DNA of 32,000 nucleotides. Source: Halomicronema hongdechloris C2206. Its GTDB lineage: Bacteria; Cyanobacteriota; Cyanobacteriia; Phormidesmidales; Phormidesmidaceae. Position numbers and translations under genes: made by a program. Positions 4,087 to 14,413 of the stretch are shown one piece after another. The notes below the pieces were generated by a model, which made no database searches, was not told the DNA's origin, and saw only the letters and a program-made list of their open reading frames with translations. The DNA lies in the NCBI RefSeq assembly GCF_002075285.3, contig NZ_CP021983.2, positions 4,920,001 to 4,952,000 of the forward strand, written 5' to 3'. How positions within the stretch are numbered: the first letter of the stretch is position 1; the number at the start of each line of letters is the position of its first letter.

Positions 4087-4653
4087 CTAGATTCCAGCTA
4101 CAGATAAAGCCTCCAATATGGAGGCTCTCCCAGTAATCGAGGCAACCGTGGCTGAGGTCAATGCAAGCAACTGCTCCTTGATAAGGTGTCGCAGTTCATC
4201 TAAGGTTTTGAGTCGTTTCCAGCGCAGCCGCTTTTTGAGGTATTGCCACACTTGCTCAATGGGATTGCATTCCGGCGCATGGGCCGGTTGAAACATCAAG
4301 AGGAGATTGTCTGGTACCTGTAAGCGTTTGGCTTTGTGCCATCCGGCTTGAGCTAACTGGATGATTAAAATACTGTCGGGGTATTGCTGAGCGACCAGTT
4401 CCAGAAAACGCTGAAAGCAGTCGGTATTCCAGTGGGTGAATTCGTAGAAAAAATGCTCACCTGTCGCTGGCTCCACCACGCCGTAGAGATAGGTGGCCTG
4501 AAAGGTCCAACGAACTTTGCCCACGGGTTTGACCCCACGTGCCGTAATCCGTCGTCCCGTGAGGGTTTTCAAGCCAACGCGACTCTCATCCTGGCAGAAG
4601 CATCGCACCGAACCACTCCAGCCCAAGACACTGATGGCGAAGAACGCCAGCAT
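4087..4653 (-). CDS. IS630 transposase, DDE catalytic part (orfB)
   Basis: Contains CFCQDESRVGLKT ... LIIQLAQAGWHKA ... PAHAPECNPIEQVWQYLK, the typical IS630/Tc1 DDE_3 pattern. Its frame is +1 relative to orfA across the A7 run. Removing one A would fuse the two ORFs. Confidence 0.8.
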   Translation of the reverse strand: MLAFFAISVLGWSGSVRCFCQDESRVGLKTLTGRRITARGVKPVGKVRWTFQATYLYGVVEPATGEHFFYEFTHWNTDCFQRFLELVAQQYPDSILIIQLAQAGWHKAKRLQVPDNLLLMFQPAHAPECNPIEQVWQYLKKRLRWKRLKTLDELRHLIKEQLLALTSATVASITGRASILEALSVAGI

Positions 4654-4663
4654 CGCGAGGTTC

Positions 4664-5179
4664 TCAGCCAGTTTTTTTATATGCGACTATCTGCGCTTCG
4701 TCCGGTTTATCGCTTTTCGGCCGCACCACTTTGGGTGCAGCCCCAAGCCGGTAGTACACCCACTTATGAACCGTTTTGTACGGAGCCACAATCCCCAATT
4801 CCAGGGCCAACCATTGCCGGATCGCCTCGTAGCTCTCAAAGCCTTCCGGTTGCTCTAAACGATTTCGCAAGGCGGTTTCGGCCCAGTCGGGTAGCGTCGA
4901 TTTGCCGCCCGGATGGGGTTTGTGGCTCCGTAACGCTTCTAATCCCCCTTGGCGGTAACGCTTGGCCCATGTCTGTATCGTCACTCGATGACGTCCCAAC
5001 AATGAGGCCGCCGCTTGCTGTATCGTCTCGGCTTGCTCACTTTTGAGGAGGTAGAGCAGTTGAATCCGTTCTTTATCCGAGGCTGTTGTTTGATTTCTCA
5101 GAAGCGCTTTGAGCGCTTGCTCGCTTTCCGTTATTTCGAGGTGATAGACGCCTGACATCGCTCGTGTTGAGTGCTTCAA
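4664..5179 (-). CDS. IS630 transposase, N-terminal HTH part (orfA)
   Basis: 171 aa with helix-turn-helix-like segments (ETIQQAAASLLGRHRVTIQTWAKRYRQGG). It ends at an A7 run (T7 on the plus strand, 4672-4678), where the next frame continues. Confidence 0.8.
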   Translation of the reverse strand: MKHSTRAMSGVYHLEITESEQALKALLRNQTTASDKERIQLLYLLKSEQAETIQQAAASLLGRHRVTIQTWAKRYRQGGLEALRSHKPHPGGKSTLPDWAETALRNRLEQPEGFESYEAIRQWLALELGIVAPYKTVHKWVYYRLGAAPKVVRPKSDKPDEAQIVAYKKTG

Positions 5180-5220: not shown

Positions 5221-6064
5221 TAAATCCAGCAAATAACTCTGCCACCCCTCATCGGGAATCAGTATCCACATGGCAACCAGGTTCCACGTGGCGGTTGCCA
5301 AAATGGGGGAGCGATCAGCATCAGGAACATCGGCCCAGGCGAGTTGCCGCACCTTGCCGGGCAGCCCTGCCAGCAGAGCGGGCAAATCTGCTTAATGATC
5401 CGAAGATTGCTTTAGGGCACGGACGTTGTCCCAGGTGAGGACGCCGACGCTGTTATCCTGATTGGCTGACGCCAAATAGGCTCCCTCGGAGGACCATTTT
5501 AAGATTCGACTGGCGGCCATCAGTTCCCATTCATATCGAGGGGAAATCCAGCGAGACGTTTCCCAAATTTGAATCCGTTGCTGAGCCGACACCGCTAGAT
5601 GAGTGCCATCGGGAGACCAGCCCAGATCTTGCACATTGGCGGGCAATTCCAGGGTGGCTAGGGTTTCACTCTGGTCAGCATCCCAAATATGAACCGTTTT
5701 GCCACAGTTGTAAGCGAGCCAGGGTTGATGGGGGTGCCACTGCAGGCGATCGAGCCAGGTTGAACCCCAGGTCAGCGTCTTTACCAACTCAGGTGAGTCA
5801 GCAGACAGCCGCCAGAGTGTCACCGCCCCGGCTTGCCCGGCTGCCGCCAACCACTGCCCCTTCCCCGGAAAACCCTAGGGCATCAATGGAAGCGCCATTG
5901 GCGGCCTGCAATATGGTTTCTTGAAAGTCTTGCCACAGAACCACCTCCCCGGCCCCAGAAGCGATCGCCAATCTATTCCCGACCGGCGACCAGACCAGGG
6001 CGGTAATGTACTCCGACAGCGATCGGTGAACCTGTAGTTCTACCAGGGATTTGAGAGAGAGCAT
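5221..6064 (-). pseudogene. WD40-repeat protein gene, disrupted (frameshift, in-frame stop, 3-prime end displaced by IS630)
   Basis: Three collinear ORF pieces (5798..6121, 5392..5850, 5203..5385) carry WD-type repeats (VTLWRL, VHIWDA, IQIWET, VGVLTW). Deleting one nt of the C4 run at 5863-5866 joins pieces 1 and 2 (..GFSGKGQWLAAAGQAGAVTLW..). TAA at 5392-5394 is in frame with piece 3. Piece 3 reads into the IS and stops at 5203-5205. A plausible ATG is at 6064-6062. Confidence 0.6.
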
Positions 6065-6133
6065 AATATAGCCTGAACCAATGGAATGGACTGACCTGCC
6101 GCCAGAAAATCTGACCCGCACGCCATAATAAAG

Positions 6134-6268: not shown

Positions 6269-6853
6269 TCAGGCCGTGCGATCGCACCACCAGGGTTGTC
6301 GTAAAACAATCTGTTGACGTTTGGAATAGCAGAGGCTGCCCTGCTGTTCCAGATTTCGCATGAGTCGGGTTACCGTCACGCGGGTGGTGCCGATGGTTTC
6401 AGCCAGTTCCTGGTGGGTTAACCGCAGTTGAATCAACTGCCCGCCCTCGGCAGAGCAACCAAACTTCTGCCCCAGCCAGGTGAGCAGCAGTTGTAATCGC
6501 TGAGGAATGTTGCCCTGTCGCATGCGAATCAGCGCTTGCATCTGGTGCAGATGGGCCATCGTCACCTGCGGCAATTCCCGACACTGCTCAAGATGTAGCC
6601 GGACGGCTTCGACATCCATCAGACATTCCAACTCGCAGGGTTGAATGCCAATAAGCGGTTGTCCAGTAAAATCGCCCGTGCCCCAAAATCCCAGGGTAAT
6701 GGCGGTGCCCTCTTCAGACAGGGTCAACAAGCGGGCGGCTCCGGTCTTGAAATGCCAGAGGGTGTTTTTCCGCAGGGGAATGATCTCCCGACGTTTGAAT
6801 TGATGAATCACGGGCTGAGTCACCGGGGCTGGGGTGGAAGCAAACTGATGCAT
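6269..6853 (-). CDS. Crp/Fnr-family transcriptional regulator
   Basis: 194 aa with an N-terminal cNMP-binding-like beta-roll region and a C-terminal HTH (LTHQELAETIGTTRVTVTRLMRNLEQQG). Confidence 0.8.
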   Translation of the reverse strand: MHQFASTPAPVTQPVIHQFKRREIIPLRKNTLWHFKTGAARLLTLSEEGTAITLGFWGTGDFTGQPLIGIQPCELECLMDVEAVRLHLEQCRELPQVTMAHLHQMQALIRMRQGNIPQRLQLLLTWLGQKFGCSAEGGQLIQLRLTHQELAETIGTTRVTVTRLMRNLEQQGSLCYSKRQQIVLRQPWWCDRTA

Positions 6854-6991
6854 ACAACCTAAAAGCGAGCCGAATCCTCGCCAGCGTAATCTGACCTGTG
6901 ATGTCAGGGCATTCAGGACAAGTCAACACCCTAACGACCATGCAAATGACATTTATTCTCAACAAGCTTAGAATTTAAGTTAACACATTCC

Positions 6992-7402
6992 TCAAGATTG
7001 AGGAGGCAGCACGGGCGGAATGCGAGCAAGGATTCCTTTCTGTAATAGGGCCGGACGGTCTCTACGGGGGATCACTCCATCGCGGCTGGTCACATATTGG
7101 GTCGCCAACTGGACAATGGCCGTCGCGCTGTCGAGAGCGGGCAAATCGCCAAACATGAGGGTCGTCTTTGCGGGAGAGGCGATCGCGATGGCCGAGGGCC
7201 GGTCTCTGACCATCGCGCAGAACCGATTGCAAGCACTAAGGCACTCTACCGGTTGAACCCTGACAGTCGGCGGTAGTTGTCCTAGTTGCTGACACTGCAA
7301 TAAACTCTGCCACAGGTGATATCCACCCCGCTGCCCTCGGTATTCCCGTTGACCAATGGCAAAGGCGCAGGAAGTGCAAATAAATAACATGTGCTGAGAC
7401 AT
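6992..7402 (-). CDS. DUF1636-type predicted metal-binding protein (thioredoxin-like ferredoxin fold)
   Basis: Contains MLFICTSC..., VECLSACNRFC, FGDL and RPALLQKGILARIPP, which match my recollection of the DUF1636 pattern (CxxC ... ECLSAC.R.C ... FGDL ... KG.IARIPP). Confidence 0.7.
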   Translation of the reverse strand: MSQHMLFICTSCAFAIGQREYRGQRGGYHLWQSLLQCQQLGQLPPTVRVQPVECLSACNRFCAMVRDRPSAIAIASPAKTTLMFGDLPALDSATAIVQLATQYVTSRDGVIPRRDRPALLQKGILARIPPVLPPQS

Positions 7403-7497
7403 CGGATTTACTCCGTTTGAAATAGGCGGATGACACCGACCTGCTCAATGTCATCCAATGCTTTATGGGTTTTGTAAGGATGCTCAGTTTAATTTTT

Positions 7498-7899
7498 TTA
7501 TAAGGTAATGACCTGATCAGGGGGATTGCCGCTCAATGCGGTGTATAAGTCTGGAAAACAACCAACGGTTACTCCTTCAACCACATCTTTGACGATGCAC
7601 TTCCCCGGTTCTTTTCGCCCGGTTCCGTCAGGATTACACCAACGTGGTTCACCTTCTGCCAGGTTCCGTTCCAGGGCACATAGATCGCACATCATCAACA
7701 GAATGTTTCGTTTTTCTGCCACCTTTGCCAATCGTTCTCCAATCGGATCGCCCTTTCGCAAAACGAAGCAGTTTTCATCGAAGAAGAACATTCCCACAAC
7801 TTCAACTCCATGCACACCCATTTCTAGCTGTGGCAGAATCATTTGCCCTAACTTGTAAGTACCCCCGCGAGGATGGGTAAAAACATAAGCAACTTTCAT
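7498..7899 (-). CDS. DsrE/TusD-like family protein with extra Cys residues
   Basis: 133 aa, MKVAYVFTHP...VVGMFFFDENCFVL...ILLMMCDLCALERNL. The layout is like TusD/DsrE (FFY.DGV ... VCV.AA..RG). Only 17 nt separate it from the thrS stop, so co-transcription is likely. Confidence 0.55.
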   Translation of the reverse strand: MKVAYVFTHPRGGTYKLGQMILPQLEMGVHGVEVVGMFFFDENCFVLRKGDPIGERLAKVAEKRNILLMMCDLCALERNLAEGEPRWCNPDGTGRKEPGKCIVKDVVEGVTVGCFPDLYTALSGNPPDQVITL

Positions 7900-7916: not shown

Positions 7917-9782
7917 CTAAATCTGTTGTTTGTTAATAATTGAATGCTGCATTTTCTCCTGAAGTTCTGACAGCGTTAATGCTCCGATTTCTCCTGCCTG
8001 ACGGGTTCGTACACTCAAGGTTTGGTTTTCCACTTCCCGTTTACCAACAACCGCAACCACTGGGATCTTCTCCAACTCAGCCGTGCGAATCTGCTTACCT
8101 AAGCGATCGCCGCTGGCATCCACCTCCACTCGCAAGTCTTGTTGTTGCAGCGCCTGGACTACCTGATTCGCATAGTCCCGCTGAGCATCACTCACGGGCA
8201 ACAACCGCACCTGCACCGGGGCCAGCCACAGGGGGAAATCCCCCGCATAGTTTTCCACCAGAATTCCAAAGAATCGCTCCAGGGAGCCAAAAATGGCCCG
8301 GTGAACCATAATCGGACGCTGCCGGGAGCCATCCGCCGCGACGTAATGCAGATCGAATCGTTCCGGTAGATTAAAGTCCACCTGCAGGGTTGAACATTGC
8401 CAGAGCCGACCAATGGCATCCTGAATCTTAATGTCGATTTTGGGACCGTAGAAGGCACCACCCCCCTCATCAACCACATAGGCCCAACCTTTGCGATCGA
8501 GCGCTTTCTGTAACGCCGAGGTGGCCAGTTCCCAAATGTCGTCGCTGCCCACAGACTTGGTCGGGCGAGTCGAAAGATTCACCTCATAGTCGGTAAAGCC
8601 AAAGTCCGACAAAATTTGTTCGGTCAGGTTCAGCACCCCTAGAATCTCCTCTGTCACCTGCTCGGGCAGACAGAAAATGTGAGCATCATCCTGGGTAAAC
8701 CCCCGCACGCGCATCAGCCCGTGGAGCACCCCAGAGCGCTCATAGCGATACACCGTGCCCAGTTCGGCCCAGCGCATCGGCAACTCCCGGTAAGAATGGA
8801 GCCGATGCTGATAGGTCAGCACATGGAAGGGACAGTTCATGGGTTTGAGCTGATACTGTTGCGCTTCCACCGCCATCTGCTCAAACATGTTCTCCTGGTA
8901 AAAGTCGAGGTGCCCGGAGGTTTGCCAGAGGTCTCGATTGGCAATGTGGGGGGTATAGAGCAGCTCATATCCAGCCTGCAGGTGAGCCTGACGCCAGTAG
9001 TCTTCGATCAGCAGGCGCATGCGGGCTCCTTTAGGATGCCAGAACACCAGCCCACCCCCGGCAGCCTCTTGAATACTGAACAGATCCAGCTCCTGGCCCA
9101 GTTTGCGATGGTCGCGTCGTTTGGCTTCCTCTTTCTGCGTCAGGTAAGCCTGCAGTTGCTCCGGGGTTTCCCAGGCAGTGCCGTAGATGCGCTGGAGCTG
9201 CGGTTGAGTCTCATCACCTCGCCAGTAGGCTCCGGCTACACTTTCCAGGACAAACGCGTCAGGATGCAGCTCGCCGGTGCGGTTCAGGTGGGGGCCAGCG
9301 CACAAATCCCACCAGTAGGGGCGCGTACTGTTAGCGGCGGCTGGTGGCTGATTGAACAGAGACGGTTCTGCGGTAACTGGCAGCGGGTCGGGACAGCCGA
9401 TGTAGTAGCGGGTAATCGGCTCATCGGCGGGAATGCTGTCGAGAATCTCTAGCTTGTAGGGTTCGTTCAGGTGCTCAATCTCAGCCCGGATGTCATCCCG
9501 TTCCACCGTTTCGCGAATGATTGGCAAATTCGCCTGAATGATCCGCCGCATTTCGGCTTCAATGCGCTGCAGATCTTCAGGCGTAAAGGGATCAGCCCGG
9601 TCAAAGTCGTAGTAAAAGCCGGTATCGGTGCAGGGGCCAATGGTGACTTTGGTCTCTGGGAACAGGGTTTGCACTGCCATGGCTAACACGTGGGCACAGG
9701 TATGGCGAAGCCGCTGCAAATGTTGCAGATCGCTAACCGGAGCAGACGCTTTAGTGGGCACGCGGGGCAGTTGGCTAACCAT
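7917..9782 (-). CDS. thrS: Threonyl-tRNA synthetase (no TGS domain; editing and catalytic Zn motifs present)
   Basis: 621 aa, collinear with E. coli ThrRS from the editing domain onward. Motifs: HTCAHVLAMAV, WWDLCAGPH, RDHRKLG, KPMNCPFHV, RGFTQDDAHIFC, MVHRAIFGSLERF. A Fur-family operator lies 18 nt upstream of the start. Confidence 0.95.
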   Translation of the reverse strand: MVSQLPRVPTKASAPVSDLQHLQRLRHTCAHVLAMAVQTLFPETKVTIGPCTDTGFYYDFDRADPFTPEDLQRIEAEMRRIIQANLPIIRETVERDDIRAEIEHLNEPYKLEILDSIPADEPITRYYIGCPDPLPVTAEPSLFNQPPAAANSTRPYWWDLCAGPHLNRTGELHPDAFVLESVAGAYWRGDETQPQLQRIYGTAWETPEQLQAYLTQKEEAKRRDHRKLGQELDLFSIQEAAGGGLVFWHPKGARMRLLIEDYWRQAHLQAGYELLYTPHIANRDLWQTSGHLDFYQENMFEQMAVEAQQYQLKPMNCPFHVLTYQHRLHSYRELPMRWAELGTVYRYERSGVLHGLMRVRGFTQDDAHIFCLPEQVTEEILGVLNLTEQILSDFGFTDYEVNLSTRPTKSVGSDDIWELATSALQKALDRKGWAYVVDEGGGAFYGPKIDIKIQDAIGRLWQCSTLQVDFNLPERFDLHYVAADGSRQRPIMVHRAIFGSLERFFGILVENYAGDFPLWLAPVQVRLLPVSDAQRDYANQVVQALQQQDLRVEVDASGDRLGKQIRTAELEKIPVVAVVGKREVENQTLSVRTRQAGEIGALTLSELQEKMQHSIINKQQI

Positions 9783-10000: not shown

Positions 10001-10444
10001 ATGGCAGATCCGGTCACCACGTTCACTGCGAGTGCAATAGCGACCCTGGCATTTCAAAAATTCATTGATTCTGCTGCTGGAGAACTCGCCAAGAAATTCT
10101 CCACTGAGGCCATCGCCAAAATGGATACGCTGTTGAAGCGCATCTGGGCGAAGTTGCGGGGCAAGCCTCGGGTGGAAGAGGTTAAAGCGACCCTTGACCA
10201 GAACCACAACATTACCCCTGGGCAGGTTAACCAGATTGCCGCCTACCTTCAGGTGGCTATGGATGAAGACCCGCAGTTTGCCAAGGATATTCAGATACTG
10301 GCTCAGGAAATTAACGCGGGTAAGCTGATTGACCAGAGCAACATGGTGCAGAACAACTACGACCAGGCGAAGGGTTGGCAGACCAAGGTGGAAGGGGGCA
10401 CCGCCTATATTGGTGAAATCCGCATTCAGGGCAAGCCGGATTAG
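10001..10444 (+). CDS. Small all-helical protein (147 aa), adaptor-like partner of the NACHT-TIR protein
   Basis: ATG at 10001 preceded by GGAGGGG (the track ORF starts at TTG 9971). The stop is 12 nt before the next start. Its C-terminal motif MVQNNYDQAKGWQTKVEGGTAYIGE recurs near the N-terminus of the downstream protein (MEQSNRDGAKGFQFLAEDGSIVFIEG). Confidence 0.6.
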   Translation: MADPVTTFTASAIATLAFQKFIDSAAGELAKKFSTEAIAKMDTLLKRIWAKLRGKPRVEEVKATLDQNHNITPGQVNQIAAYLQVAMDEDPQFAKDIQILAQEINAGKLIDQSNMVQNNYDQAKGWQTKVEGGTAYIGEIRIQGKPD

Positions 10445-10456
10445 GAATCGATAAGG

Positions 10457-13400
10457 ATGACTGGCCCCATCGCTCAACTGTGTCAGCTCATAGCGGAGAA
10501 GCTGCGGGATGCACCGAAGGCTACTCTGGCGGAGTTGGTGGCGCATGTGGAAGGGGCGATCGCTGCAAATGCTGAGTTGGCGGCTGCTTTGCAGTCTCAG
10601 CAGCGGATGGAGCAAAGCAATCGAGATGGGGCGAAGGGGTTCCAGTTCCTTGCTGAAGATGGCAGCATTGTTTTTATTGAAGGCACTCACTATCACCTAT
10701 CTGATCCAGAGAAGTTTCAGGCAGCATTGGAAGCTGTGTTGAAAGGCGTCCAGACTGCTGAAGCAAAGACGATCAATTTTGAACGCTACTTACAATCCCT
10801 CGTAACCACCTATCAGCAGTGGTGGAAGCTTTATGCCTTAACCGATGCTGTCGGGCAAATCAAAGAGCAGGAGCAGGAACAATCACTTCCCTCGCCCTTC
10901 GACTTTGGGTTAATGGTGCAGACGGTTTCTAAGGAAAGGAAGCACGCCGGTTCTGAAGCTGATCTCACTCAGGAAAAACGAGAGAAAACGGAACGATTGC
11001 CTGTGTTGGAAGGCATTTGCAAATATGCCAATGACCATGTGTTACTGGTCGGACGCCCTGGTTCTGGGAAATCCACAGCCTTGATTCGACTACTCCTGGA
11101 AATGGCAACTGCCCTCTCCCCCAACCCCTCTCCCAACCTTGGGAGAGGGAAGCCAGAGAGAATTCCTGTTTTGATAGAGTTGCGCTATTGGCAAAACTCC
11201 GTCACCGAGCGTATCCAGGCATTTATCCACAAGCACGATCCAACTCTCTCTTTGGATGAGAGTACGCTCACATCCCTACTGCGCCAGGGACGTTTTTTGC
11301 TGCTGATGGATGGCTTAAACGAGTTGCCATCGGAAACGGCAAGAACCCAGCTTGCCAGCTTTCGCCAGGACCACTCCCAAGTCCCCATGATCTTCGCTAC
11401 CCGAGATTTGGGCCTGGGGGGAGATTTGGGCATTGAAAAGAAGCTGGAAATGCAGCCCCTGACCGAAGGGCAAATGAAAGAGTTTATTCGCGCCTATGTG
11501 CCCTACCAGGCCGAGGCAATGCTGCGGCAACTTAACGACCGTTTGCGGGAGTTCGGCCAAACGCCTTTACTGCTGTGGATGCTCTGCGAGGTCTTTCAGC
11601 AGTCGCCTGAGCACCAAATGCCGCCTAACCTGGCGGGGATTTTTCAGGCATTCACTAGGATGTATGAAGACAGCAGTGTGCGGAAGCATGAGGTAGCACT
11701 GCTGAAAGGGGATGTGAGGCCCCTAAGCGATCGCAGACTTTGGAAGCCCGCCCTGCAAGCTATTGCCGCAACCATGATGCAGGGAGAAACCCCGGTCGAT
11801 TTTCGCAGAGTGATTTCTCGTCATGAAGCAGAAGGGGAACTCAGCAGAATTTTCCCTAATGAAAAATTCCCGGTTCGAGATATTTTAGATGACTTGCTTA
11901 AGTACCACCTATTGCAAAACCGCAGTGCCGACAAAATTGAGTTTCGCCACCAGCTAATTCAGGAATATTACGCGGCGGAATATTTGCTTAAACTGCTACC
12001 AGAACTGACCGATGAGGAATTGAAGCGAGACTACCTCAACCTTTTGAAGTGGACCGAACCCATTGCCCTGATGCTGGCGCTTGTGGACAAGGAAGAGCAA
12101 GCATGTCGGGTGGTTAAACTGGCGATCGATGATGTAGATGTGATTCTGGGAGTGAGGTTCGCAAGGGAAGTAAAGCAAGAATTTCGAGCAAAAACTCATC
12201 ATCTAGTCACAGTGGCAAATGCGCCACGAAAAATTATTAATCTTGCCTTGGCTCTTACTCAGCCAACATCTGCCGATGACGAACTATTCGAATTTTTGTT
12301 CGAACAAAATAGACAAGAAGATTCCCTGGAGATATTAGTAGAGTCTCTATATACTTCTGATTATGATACTCGTGCATATGTCATCGCAAAGTTAACAGAA
12401 AAATACAGCAATGAGTCAATTGAGATTTTAGAAAAGTTTTTAAGGAAAACAACGGATGGAAGTTCTCGTGCTTTAGCCATACCTGCACTAGCTAAGGTTA
12501 GCAATATTAAAGCTATTCATTTAGCGGTGGAAGCGCTTGATGACAATGATTGGTTAGTTAGGTTGGCATCTGCTCAGGCACTTGGAATATGTCGGCATGA
12601 ACCATCAGTTCCCAAGCTTATCGAAATGCTTGAAGACGATGATTATGATGTTCGTGGCGGAGCTGGAAAAGCGCTTGGAAAAATTGGCAGTAATCAAGCC
12701 ATTGAAGGGATTTTAAATGCGTTATCGAAAGCGGATAAGGAATACATCCATGCCGATCATTTTCATCGTTTTCAGATTGAACAAAGATTCATCGTTGAGG
12801 CACTCATAGGTTTGGAGTACACCTCTCATGAATCTCAAAAAGCAGCAATAGAAAAATTGATCAATATCGGTTCTAAGACCGCTTTGCGAGAATCAATCAA
12901 AGAGTTCCAGACTGTAATCGAAAGTAACTCCGAATCGTGGACTAGCATTTTGGAAGCTTTGGCTAAGATCAGCAGCTCGCAAGCGATTGATACTATTCTT
13001 GAATTACTCGATGAAAAAATAGATGACGAAAATCTTCAGCTATTCACTCTCCCTGAAATTATAGAGAGACTAGAAATTCGTTCCGCAATTCCGTCGCTAA
13101 TCAAACTGATTTATGAATCGACAGGAACAGAAAGCATTGCAAATTGTCTAGCCAGTTTGAATGTAGTTGAAATCTTGCCAAGATTAGTTCAACTTTGGAA
13201 AAAAACCGAGGGTGAGCAGTATCGTTCAGCGATTACCAGACTGCAAAATTTTTGTAAATTCTATAACTACGAAGTTGCTTACGGCATCACCCCCCTAGGC
13301 AAAACCATTTCCCTCTATTTCTCCTACGCCCCCGCCGACGAAGCCCTACAAACCCAACTCGCTAATCACCTCACTCTGCTCGAACACCAGGGCGTCATCA

Positions 13401-13759
13401 CCAGTTGGAGTCAGCGTCAAATTCTCCCCGGCGACGAACCCGCTCAAGTCATTAACCAGCAACTCAACACTGCCGACATCATTCTGTTGCTAATCAGCGC
13501 CAACTCCCTCGCCGACGACACCTGCTACGACCTCGAAATCCAACAGGCTATCGAACGGCACCAGGCAGGCGAGGCTCGCGTCATTCCCATTCTGCTGCGT
13601 CCGGTAGACTGGGCCGGTGCGCCCTTTAGCCAGCTTGAAGTATTGCCCAGAAATCATCAGCCCCTCACCACCTGGGCCAATCAAGACGAAGCCTTTCGCG
13701 AAATCGCCGAGGGCATTCGAGCTATCGCAATGGAAGTAAGGAGAGAAAAAGAAGAATAG
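10457..13759 (+). CDS. STAND NTPase: N-terminal helical module - NACHT - HEAT repeats - C-terminal TIR domain (1100 aa)
   Basis: Walker A VLLVGRPGSGKST (nt 11039 onward), Walker B FLLLMDGLNE, and NACHT-type TPLLLWMLC. HEAT/PBS-lyase-type repeats (DWLVRLASAQALG..VPKLIEMLEDDDYDVRGGAGKALGKIGSNQAIEGIL). TIR_2-like C-terminus ISLYFSYAPADE...ILLLISANSLADDTCYDLEIQQAIE, with the putative catalytic Glu codon at 13535-13537. Confidence 0.9.
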   Translation: MTGPIAQLCQLIAEKLRDAPKATLAELVAHVEGAIAANAELAAALQSQQRMEQSNRDGAKGFQFLAEDGSIVFIEGTHYHLSDPEKFQAALEAVLKGVQTAEAKTINFERYLQSLVTTYQQWWKLYALTDAVGQIKEQEQEQSLPSPFDFGLMVQTVSKERKHAGSEADLTQEKREKTERLPVLEGICKYANDHVLLVGRPGSGKSTALIRLLLEMATALSPNPSPNLGRGKPERIPVLIELRYWQNSVTERIQAFIHKHDPTLSLDESTLTSLLRQGRFLLLMDGLNELPSETARTQLASFRQDHSQVPMIFATRDLGLGGDLGIEKKLEMQPLTEGQMKEFIRAYVPYQAEAMLRQLNDRLREFGQTPLLLWMLCEVFQQSPEHQMPPNLAGIFQAFTRMYEDSSVRKHEVALLKGDVRPLSDRRLWKPALQAIAATMMQGETPVDFRRVISRHEAEGELSRIFPNEKFPVRDILDDLLKYHLLQNRSADKIEFRHQLIQEYYAAEYLLKLLPELTDEELKRDYLNLLKWTEPIALMLALVDKEEQACRVVKLAIDDVDVILGVRFAREVKQEFRAKTHHLVTVANAPRKIINLALALTQPTSADDELFEFLFEQNRQEDSLEILVESLYTSDYDTRAYVIAKLTEKYSNESIEILEKFLRKTTDGSSRALAIPALAKVSNIKAIHLAVEALDDNDWLVRLASAQALGICRHEPSVPKLIEMLEDDDYDVRGGAGKALGKIGSNQAIEGILNALSKADKEYIHADHFHRFQIEQRFIVEALIGLEYTSHESQKAAIEKLINIGSKTALRESIKEFQTVIESNSESWTSILEALAKISSSQAIDTILELLDEKIDDENLQLFTLPEIIERLEIRSAIPSLIKLIYESTGTESIANCLASLNVVEILPRLVQLWKKTEGEQYRSAITRLQNFCKFYNYEVAYGITPLGKTISLYFSYAPADEALQTQLANHLTLLEHQGVITSWSQRQILPGDEPAQVINQQLNTADIILLLISANSLADDTCYDLEIQQAIERHQAGEARVIPILLRPVDWAGAPFSQLEVLPRNHQPLTTWANQDEAFREIAEGIRAIAMEVRREKEE
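11112..11149. repeat. In-frame palindromic mini-element inside the NACHT domain
   Basis: CCCTCTCCC-CCAAC-CCCTCTCCCAA-CC-TTGGGAGAGGG. There is a perfect 11-bp stem (11126-11136 / 11139-11149) plus an extra direct copy of the left arm (11112-11120). It is translated as ALSPNPSPNLGRGK just after the P-loop helix. Confidence 0.7.
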
Positions 13760-13815
13760 TAGGGAGTAGAGGAGTAAGGAAGATTGAAAACAGATTAATC
13801 AGGAGGTTGAAAAAC

Positions 13816-14010
13816 ATGATCGAAAAACGTGTAGTTGTAGTGAATAGAACGACGCTCAAATCTTCTCAATCGGACGTGGCTTACTGGCGAAGTCAGACCT
13901 ACGAAGCAAGATTAGCCGCCTTAGAAACTATTCGACGCGAATATCACCAGTGGAAATACAATGCTGAGCCAGGATTTCAGAGAGTTTATCGAATTGTTAA
14001 ACAAGCATGA
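13816..14010 (+). CDS. Small conserved protein (64 aa), antitoxin-like partner of the downstream NTase-fold gene
   Basis: ATG at 13816 follows AGGAGG at a 9-nt spacing. The sequence ...AYWRSQTYEARLAALETIRREYHQW...GFQRVYRIVKQA resembles a small-protein family I recall next to nucleotidyltransferase-fold genes. It overlaps the next ORF by 50 nt. Confidence 0.5.
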   Translation: MIEKRVVVVNRTTLKSSQSDVAYWRSQTYEARLAALETIRREYHQWKYNAEPGFQRVYRIVKQA

Positions 14011-14413
14011 TGTTCGCTATTTAGTGATTGGTGGCTATGCCGTAGCCCTGCACGGACATCCACGGTATACCAAAGATCTAGACATTTGGATAGAAATGGA
14101 GCCATCTAATGCAGCGAAACTTATGAATGCTCTTACAGACTTTGGTTTTGGTTCAGTAGGACTAAACCCAAATGATTTTACAGTCCCAGATCAGGTGATT
14201 CAACTCGGTTATCCGCCCAATCGGATAGATTTAGTAACAACTCCTGACGGAGTTGATTTCGCAACCTGTTACCGAGCTAGGGTGAAAGTACCCATTAATG
14301 GAATTGAAATCAGTTTTATCGATTTGGAGAATCTTAAGCTTAATAAAAAAGCATCAGGCAGACTGCAAGATCTAGCTGACTTAGAAAAGCTGAATGAGCA
14401 AGAAGACAGTTAA
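13961..14413 (+). CDS. Nucleotidyltransferase-fold protein (AbiEii / DUF6036-like)
   Basis: 150 aa, FREFIELLNKHDVRYLVIGGYAVALHGHPRYTKDLDIWIE. This is the typical minimal NTase GG...DxD pattern. Confidence 0.65.
   Translation: MLSQDFREFIELLNKHDVRYLVIGGYAVALHGHPRYTKDLDIWIEMEPSNAAKLMNALTDFGFGSVGLNPNDFTVPDQVIQLGYPPNRIDLVTTPDGVDFATCYRARVKVPINGIEISFIDLENLKLNKKASGRLQDLADLEKLNEQEDS

Follow-up and report, generated by a model that had tools for sequence, protein, structure and literature searches.

Our analysis places two co-oriented open reading frames (ORFs) of Halomicronema hongdechloris C2206, a filamentous cyanobacterium, very probably in the described Bell/BASS9/NLR class, in which a Bell protein with a C-terminal BASS stands, usually a few nucleotides away, beside a collinear NLR that carries the same motif near its N-terminus; BASS9 is one of ten 'bacterial amyloid signalling sequences' (BASS; Dyrka et al. 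2020, bioRxiv 10.1101/2020.01.06.895854). The pair occupies positions 10001..13759 of the 32,000-nt stretch of contig NZ_CP021983.2 analysed here (positions 4,920,001 to 4,952,000, forward strand; hereafter the window). The first gene (10001..10444, + strand; ASC73718.1) encodes the predicted Bell-domain effector, 147 aa from an ATG start, with a GGAGGGG ribosome-binding site just 5' of it and homologues that begin at the identical Met. The second (10457..13759, + strand; ASC73719.1/WP_187329513.1) encodes an NLR of 1100 aa with a BASS9-NACHT-HEAT-TIR architecture, as judged from the ORF and from Pfam, PADLOC, AlphaFold and Foldseek. We propose that this module signals by amyloid templating and that its receptor carries a second, cis-fused output, a full mechanism to which we give a probability of about 0.6. 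The initial annotation had treated the two genes, 12 nt apart, as one module; both ORFs were confirmed, and the pairing recurs across loci.

The motif shared by the two proteins lies at the C-terminus of the small one (aa 113-139, SNMVQNNYDQAKGWQTKVEGGTAYIGE; 10337..10417, + strand), where it is near-invariant in the family, and close to the N-terminus of the NLR (aa 50-76, RMEQSNRDGAKGFQFLAEDGSIVFIEG; 10604..10684, + strand), the arrangement of a BASS9 pair in adjacent collinear genes. BLASTP aligned residues 109-134 of the small protein with residues 45-70 of the NTPase (12/26 identities, E 8e-4), and the Smith-Waterman score of the motif was 54, compared with 31.3 +/- 5.3 for shuffled sequences (4.3 standard deviations; 11 of 5000 shuffles reached 54). 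A six-frame scan of the window with a profile of the Bell-side motif returned two matches only, the C-terminus of the small protein (E 1.5e-20) and the N-terminus of the NTPase (E 0.01). Note that the NTPase match alone is independent, the profile having been trained on 77 Bell ORFs of the fetched loci, the window copy included. When the N-terminal module of the NTPase was compared with the Bell family by hhalign, NTPase residues 7-85 matched Bell residues 43-147 with a probability of 97.9% (E 4e-13), so the profile-profile similarity reaches into the helices that precede the motif. Together with the recurrence across loci, the six-frame scan and the shuffle test rule out a chance or low-complexity origin. 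Thus, the shared motif proposed in the initial annotation is real and marks a functional link, and its remark that a similar helical stretch precedes the motif in both proteins was borne out by the reach of the hhalign match.

We are highly confident in classifying this motif, from its sequence, as BASS9. Both copies match BASS9 rows of Table S2 of Dyrka et al., on the Bell side the pattern MxQNNxDNAKGWQTKVEGGTAYI and on the NLR side the position, residues about 51-73; this assignment is a string-level match to those rows, and our profile was built from Bell-side motifs and is not the published nlr_20. The same table lists a Pseudanabaena SR411 pair with MTQNNSDNAKGWQTKVEGGTAYI on the Bell side and LIQINEGNAKGFQTLVTGGIANI at NLR residues 51-73, and similar BASS9 pairs from Microcystis, Calothrix, Leptolyngbya and Chamaesiphon (bioRxiv 10.1101/2020.01.06.895854). 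In the AlphaFold models the motif forms a low-confidence beta-hairpin in both proteins, on a flexible tail in the Bell protein and at residues 60-65 and 71-75 in the NLR. The initial annotation had read the pair as a homotypic adaptor of the type of the effector-associated domains (EADs); it captured the logic but not the identity of the element, which is BASS9 and matches no Pfam EAD model.

Searches of Pfam, PADLOC and NCBIfam gave no match for the small protein. We classify it with similarly high confidence, again from predicted features, as a Bell-domain protein and hence a predicted membrane-targeting death effector. Its family comprises 800 homologues of ~145-155 aa from filamentous cyanobacteria (66-100% identical among the 120 listed), or 388 50%-identity clusters at E <= 1e-3, and the window protein matches with E 1.5e-41 a Pseudanabaena SR411 ORF in which the Bell-side string of OYQ62169.1 occurs unchanged. 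Its N-terminus is a hydrophobic/amphipathic helix (aa 1-27, MADPVTTFTASAIATLAFQKFIDSAAG; 10001..10081, + strand), identified by alignment and hydrophobicity, with the conserved start M-x-[DE]-P, here M-A-D-P. No other stretch of the protein is as hydrophobic as this helix, and position 3 is D or E in most of 30 aligned homologues, so the N-terminal mark of Bell proteins, a hydrophobic helix that has an acidic residue at position 2-3, is present (MADPVTTFTASAIATLAFQKF). The helix agrees with the published N-terminal signature of the Bell/HeLo type and with the published 'MEPIS' region. The ~100-aa all-helical bundle expected of a ~120-140-aa Bell protein is also seen in this 147-aa one: the AlphaFold2 model shows helices at residues 10-106, mostly with pLDDT 80-89 (about 63 at residues 21-30), followed by a disordered tail, which places the bundle at aa about 8-108 (10022..10324, + strand). 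With its hydrophobic first helix and the acidic residue at position 3, the helical bundle of the small protein is the Bell domain, and the earlier statement that the free partner has no recognisable effector was therefore wrong. The Bell domain has been proposed as a membrane-targeting death executor with, according to the describing authors, variable topologies (Dyrka et al. 2020, bioRxiv 10.1101/2020.01.06.895854), and both membrane targeting and killing have been shown for a related Babybell protein, Bab (bioRxiv 10.1101/2024.11.07.622273).

Some Bell homologues are fused N-terminally to other domains (P0251, P0272, P0349, P0384, P0268, P0270): two of these proteins are NB-ARC-TPR NLRs (P0268 and P0270), one is a CHAT-TRADD_N-TIR protein, and the others carry GUN4 or DUF900, an alpha/beta hydrolase. 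Since it is N-terminal in the all-in-one NB-ARC-TPR proteins and is fused to CHAT-TRADD_N-TIR, Bell occupies the effector position. Two further relationships of the small protein were considered. An apparent relation to polyubiquitin (alignment A1 against PDB sequences, E 4e-6) is an artefact, in which the score sums over tandem ubiquitin repeats matching the short stretch VEEVKASI..ITPEQ and each single domain gives E above 500. Matches to Bcl-2-family proteins, the NRG1 CC-R domain and lysins were weak and non-significant, and we claim no structural link of Bell to HeLo, MLKL or CC.

The pairing of this small protein with a STAND NTPase is recurrent. A survey of one genome per species, of the kind suggested in the initial annotation (the motif beside STAND genes), gave 78 loci with a Bell-BASS9 homologue, all of them cyanobacterial. 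In these loci the Bell homologue is followed by a STAND NTPase on the same strand, with a gap of mostly no more than a few tens of nucleotides, and in about 50 of the 78 the next gene has a BASS9 match in its first ~85 residues. Most partner NTPases are NB-ARC-TPR proteins. Four are NACHT-HEAT proteins (L001, L007, L012, L038) and three besides the window are NACHT-HEAT-TIR proteins (L011 of Vacuolonema; L019 and L028 of Elainellaceae), with Pfam confirmation for L011 and L019. By genus, the neighbour of Bell is NACHT-HEAT in Leptodesmis and NB-ARC-TPR in Leptolyngbya and Scytolyngbya, with the motif near each N-terminus. Different loci have no flanking genes in common, so the pair travels as a unit, and toxin-antitoxin pairs often lie next to it.

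Other arrangements of the motif were observed in the survey. In Drouetiella hepatica (L083, 6135-12105) three consecutive genes form a multi-component BASS9 cluster: a BASS9-NB-ARC-TPR gene, a gene for a 402-aa non-NLR protein composed of TIR_2, BASS9 and an unknown domain, and a gene with a BASS9-like N-terminus. The TIR_2 of this cluster, fused to BASS9, is 54% identical to the TIR of the window. An 881-aa protein (L082, 5224-7869) combines a PNP_UDP phosphorylase, BASS9 (263-287), a SEFIR/TIR domain and NB-ARC, the motif thus being internal, between enzyme and NLR. Finally, in Okeania sp. SIO3B5 (L006, about 8459-9505; L018, about 6459-7505) the Bell partner is a 348-aa protein that is not an NTPase; it shares the N-terminal module, its BASS9 is degenerate (MRQINRDEVSAHQTLVENGIANIG), and its C-terminal region has no Pfam match.

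The NACHT, HEAT and TIR_2 domains of the large protein all exceed the curated Pfam cut-offs. The N-terminal helices that precede the motif (aa 1-49; 10457..10603, + strand), supported by alignment A3, hhalign and model helices at residues 4-47, are part of a portable module common to the NB-ARC-TPR partners. This module opens with M-x-D-P-I-A-Q-L-C in nearly all homologues of alignment A3 and with MTGPIAQLC in the window (10457-10480), a start that echoes the M-x-[DE]-P-[VI] of Bell; note that hhalign did not align these two N-termini. After the motif comes a conserved pre-NACHT region (aa 101-185; 10757..11011, + strand), recognised by homologue comparison and present in 110 of 123 compared NACHT-HEAT homologues irrespective of their N-terminal module. 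The NACHT core (aa 186-360; 11012..11536, + strand) is supported by Pfam (residues 194-348, 33.2 bits, cut-off 26.7), by a structural match and by its motifs, Walker A GRPGSGKST (nt 11051-11077, with K205) and Walker B LLLMDGLNE (residues 281-289, nt 11297-11323). It is followed by the NACHT-associated helical/winged-helix region (aa 361-600; 11537..12256, + strand), modelled with high pLDDT and 79-86% identical to homologues, and then by the HEAT repeats (aa 601-940; 12257..13276, + strand; Pfam HEAT_2/HEAT_PBS, with 79.5 bits for HEAT_2), a hypervariable putative sensor rich in A+T at third codon positions (AT3-rich). The full-length AlphaFold model has a mean pLDDT of 75.6, with NLRC4, NLRP3 and NOD2 as its best PDB matches (Foldseek, E 1e-9 to 1e-8). 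With both Walker motifs, a NACHT profile above cut-off and a NACHT-winged helix-helical fold preceding repeats, the protein is a NACHT-clade NLR.

The C-terminal TIR_2 domain (aa 946-1100; 13292..13756, + strand), identified by Pfam, PADLOC and alignment, scores 50.5 bits in Pfam at residues 955-1082 (cut-off 28), and its best profile, the PADLOC model of the ThsB-type TIR (ThsB1), matches residues 952-1098 with E 4.6e-45. The Glu at the catalytic position, E1027 (nt 13535-13537), lies within CYDLEI and is kept in at least 90% of 39 homologous TIRs. The closest solved TIR is that of Cat1 (PDB 9mud, E 1.9e-6), in which E1027 aligns with a Glu of the WCWD-ELEQA segment. TIR domains occur in 36 of 120 NACHT-HEAT homologues, always C-terminal whatever the N-terminus, which is a BASS9 module in 5 of the 36, Trypsin_2 in 4, EAD6 or another helical adaptor in 9 and absent in 17, the last being a fragment. 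Because these 17, about half of the TIR-bearing members, have no N-terminal module, the TIR is their sole candidate effector. From these sequences, the TIR is a regular, optional predicted output of the NACHT-HEAT NLR family, and it probably cleaves NAD+ or makes a NAD-derived product. A recent fusion of a separate TIR gene is unlikely, given its host-like G+C content at third codon positions (GC3) and the same arrangement in 36 homologues.

These results agree with the initial annotation in the NACHT, HEAT and C-terminal TIR_2 domains and in the positions of K205 and E1027, with Pfam scores above cut-off and the motifs located. Its ~180-aa helical N-terminal module proved to be a composite, with helices at residues 4-47, then the beta-hairpin motif and then the pre-NACHT region at about 101-185. 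Likewise, the HEAT region covers about 340 aa (about 601-942, the modelled solenoid being 606-942) and not the about 380 aa given there. Finally, a TIR placed after the sensor, described there as atypical, is indeed unusual for a characterised bacterial NLR but recurs, being the arrangement of 36 of the 120 homologues.

In the mechanism that we propose, the HEAT region would sense a ligand, as its position, its hypervariability and the analogy with other NLRs suggest, and the bound ligand would free the NACHT NTPase to oligomerise, as expected from its family. The clustered BASS9 copies of the NLR (aa 50-76) could then take a cross-beta fold, which would template the C-terminal BASS9 of Bell. 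The Bell bundle would in turn free its hydrophobic N-terminal helix and damage the membrane, as HET-S/NWD2 and Bab/Agp of E. coli suggest by analogy. Oligomerisation would also cluster the C-terminal TIRs, with probable cleavage of NAD+ or formation of a NAD-derived product; we infer this step because the catalytic-position Glu is conserved and TIRs need self-association. The affected cell would die or arrest and the filament would be protected. The role in cell death or abortive infection proposed initially is still the best reading, and the related Bab/Agp has been shown to act by abortive infection.

Several observations weigh against this mechanism. BASS1, BASS3 and BASS11 have been shown to form amyloids, but no fibril or prion test of BASS9 was found in the literature searched, which likewise gave no experiment with proteins of this Bell subfamily or with a NACHT-HEAT-TIR protein. 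In this NACHT clade the NLR-side motif ranks with those that have diverged furthest from the Bell-side one: its second half reads AEDGSIVFIEG, compared with VEGGTAYIGE in Bell, and its profile score is 10-11 bits only, therefore efficient templating is not assured. There was no clear locus-specific co-variation of the Bell and NLR motifs, with an identity of 0.449 within loci and 0.440 between loci (permutation p 0.048, several motifs being mis-anchored); since the Bell side is almost invariant, this test is low-powered. The N-terminal helix of Bell is moderately hydrophobic, with a mean Kyte-Doolittle value of about 0.8-0.9, and a fold search with the Bell model gave no significant PDB match, including to HeLo, MLKL and CC (none below E 1.6). 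Finally, catalysis by the TIR of this NLR and the product are predictions, and a phage is a candidate trigger.

Another possibility is that the element is a non-amyloid, EAD-like homotypic adaptor that docks stoichiometrically by beta-strand pairing, without prion-like templating. The similarity between the two proteins exceeds the motif (NTPase 7-85, Bell 43-147), as if a small domain and not just a peptide had been duplicated; AlphaFold gives a simple hairpin in both; the literature searched offers no amyloid test of BASS9; and duplicated adaptors in adjacent genes, the logic of EADs, are well documented in the same organisms. However, the motif has the composition (rich in G, N, Q, V and I) and the length of a BASS and was assigned to BASS9 by the same group whose work validated the amyloids or prions of other BASS families, its pLDDT is low in both models, unlike that of a folded adaptor, and no Pfam EAD model matches either protein. 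In many partner NLRs the motif stands at residues 1-25, where no helices precede it, so these helices are dispensable. On balance we consider such docking unlikely. In a further alternative, the small protein would be a regulator (a cap or antitoxin-like partner that keeps the N-terminus of the NLR inactive, or a decoy), with the C-terminal TIR as the sole killing domain here. The NLR already has its TIR, 17 TIR-bearing relatives have no N-terminal module, the window NLR-side motif is degenerate, and the conservation of Bell is unusually high for a defence effector (119 listed relatives from different genera, with 66-96% identity). We regard this as very unlikely, however: most Bell-BASS9 partners are NB-ARC-TPR proteins in which Bell must supply the output because no other effector domain is there, Bell holds the effector position in the fused NLRs, and the signature of its N-terminal helix is the one required for killing in Bab (G11K) and Avs2.

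The trigger, finally, could be something other than a virus, the module serving programmed cell death in the filament (developmental, in response to stress, or in kin/non-self recognition), as in fungal NLR/HET-S allorecognition. Bell/BASS pairs are almost confined to multicellular bacteria, the 78 loci are all cyanobacterial, and the window locus sits between housekeeping genes (ThrRS, Fur, HemB) with no recognisable prophage. Against this, toxin-antitoxin pairs of the sort typical of defence islands lie around this locus and related ones, the chromosomal context of the pair is not conserved, its putative sensor is hypervariable, and Bab/Agp, the one relative that has been tested, is antiphage. 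A purely non-antiviral role thus seems to us quite unlikely; it concerns the trigger and not the mechanism, and is compatible with the Bell/BASS9 signalling proposed above.

Different segments of the NLR find their best homologues in different proteins. The best identity is 75-84% for the N-terminal module (residues 1-100), 93% for the pre-NACHT region (101-185), 90% for NACHT (186-360), 86% for the winged-helix/helical region (361-600) and 89% for the TIR (941-1100). HEAT (601-940) is the only hypervariable segment, with a best identity of 47%, compared with 75-93% elsewhere, followed by 43% for the next homologue and 29% or less for the rest. The HEAT segment also differs in composition, with a GC of 0.387 and a GC3 of 0.32, compared with 0.53/0.61 for NACHT and 0.56/0.63 for TIR in a window of GC 0.54. 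Along the ORF, GC3 is about 0.28-0.38 in the HEAT part and 0.53-0.69 in the NACHT and TIR parts. This trough is seen in four NACHT-HEAT-TIR genes, in which GC3 is about 0.23-0.41 in HEAT and 0.5-0.78 in the flanks, the other three being those of L011 (6457-10290), L019 (3334-7161) and L028 (3880-7776), from genomes of 0.46-0.54 GC; since it recurs in them, it is a property of the family and not a one-off acquisition. Tandem DNA repeats of the kind found in fungal NLR repeats are absent from the HEAT region. The variable, AT3-rich segment could have arisen by exchange of cassettes between the conserved flanks or by rapid divergence in place with a drift to AT; both origins are possible.

The NACHT-winged helix block and the C-terminal TIR are 85-93% identical between organisms and could act as homology arms between which AT3-rich HEAT cassettes are swapped among paralogues and genomes. 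Such swapping would account both for the position of the TIR after the sensor and for the recurrent GC3 trough in four unrelated genomes. We put forward, tentatively and with the odds rather against it, that the NACHT-HEAT-TIR proteins of this clade are dual-output NLRs built for quick sensor exchange, with two death routes per activation (amyloid-templated Bell at the membrane and TIR-dependent destruction of NAD+) and HEAT cassettes swapped between homology arms. If so, a phage with a single inhibitor could find it harder to escape two simultaneous death routes. The pattern of conserved flanks and variable cassettes offers a testable explanation for effector domains that follow the sensor; no description of a variable, AT3-rich HEAT sensor between conserved flanks was found in the searchable literature.

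The 12-nt spacer between the two genes (10445..10456) contains a Shine-Dalgarno-like AAGGA and, in a terminator scan, no terminator-like site; promoter and terminator scans of the locus gave signals at background level, and the Bell and NLR genes are probably co-transcribed. The pair is flanked by ThrRS (7917-9782, minus strand) and by a Fur-family regulator and HemB, and a comparison of the flanking genes with 84 fetched loci gave no synteny matches. Directly downstream of the NLR lie an ORF of 67 aa that has no family match (13807-14010, + strand) and, overlapping it by 50 nt, an ORF of 150 aa for a DUF6036/AbiEii-like nucleotidyltransferase (13961-14413, + strand); the GC of the two is 0.41, and from their sequences they look like a toxin-antitoxin-type pair. 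Elsewhere in the window, an IS630-like transposase, made of a DDE_3 ORF and an HTH ORF (4087-5179 and 5392-6121, both minus strand), adjoins short WD40-repeat ORFs, and its insertion may have disrupted a WD40-repeat gene. In public records the small protein is named 'hypothetical protein' and the NLR 'phycocyanobilin lyase HEAT-like repeat protein' or 'HEAT repeat domain-containing protein', names that miss NACHT and TIR; our results correct the phycocyanobilin lyase annotation to NLR and the hypothetical protein to Bell protein.

The initial annotation had described the architecture of the pair as undescribed. This is not so, as the arrangement was published by Dyrka et al. in 2020, and because the core two-gene logic and BASS9 date from that work, what is discovered here is limited. 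A BASS9/Bell pairing with a C-terminal TIR on a NACHT-HEAT receptor was, however, not found in the searchable literature, a search outside which many subscription papers lie, and the same search gave no description of a NACHT-HEAT receptor with a C-terminal TIR. If the proposed mechanism is true, a single receptor would drive both a pore-former, through amyloid templating, and a TIR enzyme, two death effectors unrelated to each other, and amyloid signalling would be extended from NB-ARC-TPR partners to NACHT-HEAT receptors.

The closest known systems are the Bell/BASS9/NLR pairs of Dyrka et al., such as OYQ62169.1/OYQ62143.1 of Pseudanabaena SR411 and CAO90856.1/CAO90857.1 of Microcystis PCC 7806. 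They share with the window the small-protein family, the motif on both sides, its position in the NLR (about 51-73), close collinear genes, the phylum and the multicellular habit. They differ in their receptors, as the partners inspected (Pseudanabaena, Microcystis and Calothrix loci) are NB-ARC-TPR proteins whereas that of the window has NACHT, HEAT and TIR, and in the NLR-side motif, which has diverged in its second half in the clade of the window. For the Bab/Agp system of E. coli ECOR25, abortive infection by way of amyloid templating and damage to the membrane has been shown (Ibarlosa et al. 2024, bioRxiv 10.1101/2024.11.07.622273). Here too a small helical protein ('Babybell'), with an amyloid motif at its C-terminus and an N-terminal helix of the M-x-[DE]-P type, is encoded next to a large sensor that has the same motif N-terminally, but the motif is BASS11 rather than BASS9, Bab is shorter (a domain of about 80 aa), and no sequence match to the window proteins was detectable. 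In fungal NWD2/HET-S (also HELLP/HELLF), an NLR with an N-terminal amyloid motif adjoins a pore-forming helical effector with the motif at its C-terminus, and templating follows oligomerisation of the NLR; these systems are eukaryotic, with a NACHT-WD receptor that has no TIR, and HeLo/HELL has no detectable sequence homology to Bell.

EADs are short non-catalytic modules that occur, in conflict systems of multicellular bacteria, once in a STAND or core component and again in a separately encoded partner (Kaur, Burroughs, Iyer and Aravind 2020/2021). In sister NACHT-HEAT(-TIR) proteins the BASS9 module is replaced by EAD6 (PF19954), but the element of the window is a short G/N/Q-rich beta segment classed as amyloid signalling and not a folded helical adaptor, and a Pfam scan of either protein at E <= 0.1 gave no EAD family, so the pair does not belong to EAD1-11. 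Membership of the Avs family was also rejected, as the PADLOC Avs2 match is weak and partial (residues 365-514, E 1.7e-4), no full-length model matches and the architecture differs. The ThsB-type TIR does not make the locus a Thoeris system, since it is present as a domain of an NLR and no ThsA gene was found among the window ORFs; a Pfam scan of these ORFs gave no ThsA-like gene (SIR2, SLOG, Macro) or other signal-receiver gene, and a Thoeris-type relay is therefore not supported. Nevertheless, the window NLR shares with plant TNL resistosomes, SARM1, Cat1 and Thoeris ThsB a TIR with a conserved catalytic-position Glu that would be activated by induced proximity. In TNLs and in the characterised Avs and bNACHT proteins the effector is usually N-terminal, whereas the TIR of the window is C-terminal. 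In this respect it resembles SARM1 (ARM-SAM-TIR), in which the TIR is C-terminal to repeats of the ARM/HEAT type, as in the NLR described here, the difference being that the latter has no SAM domains.

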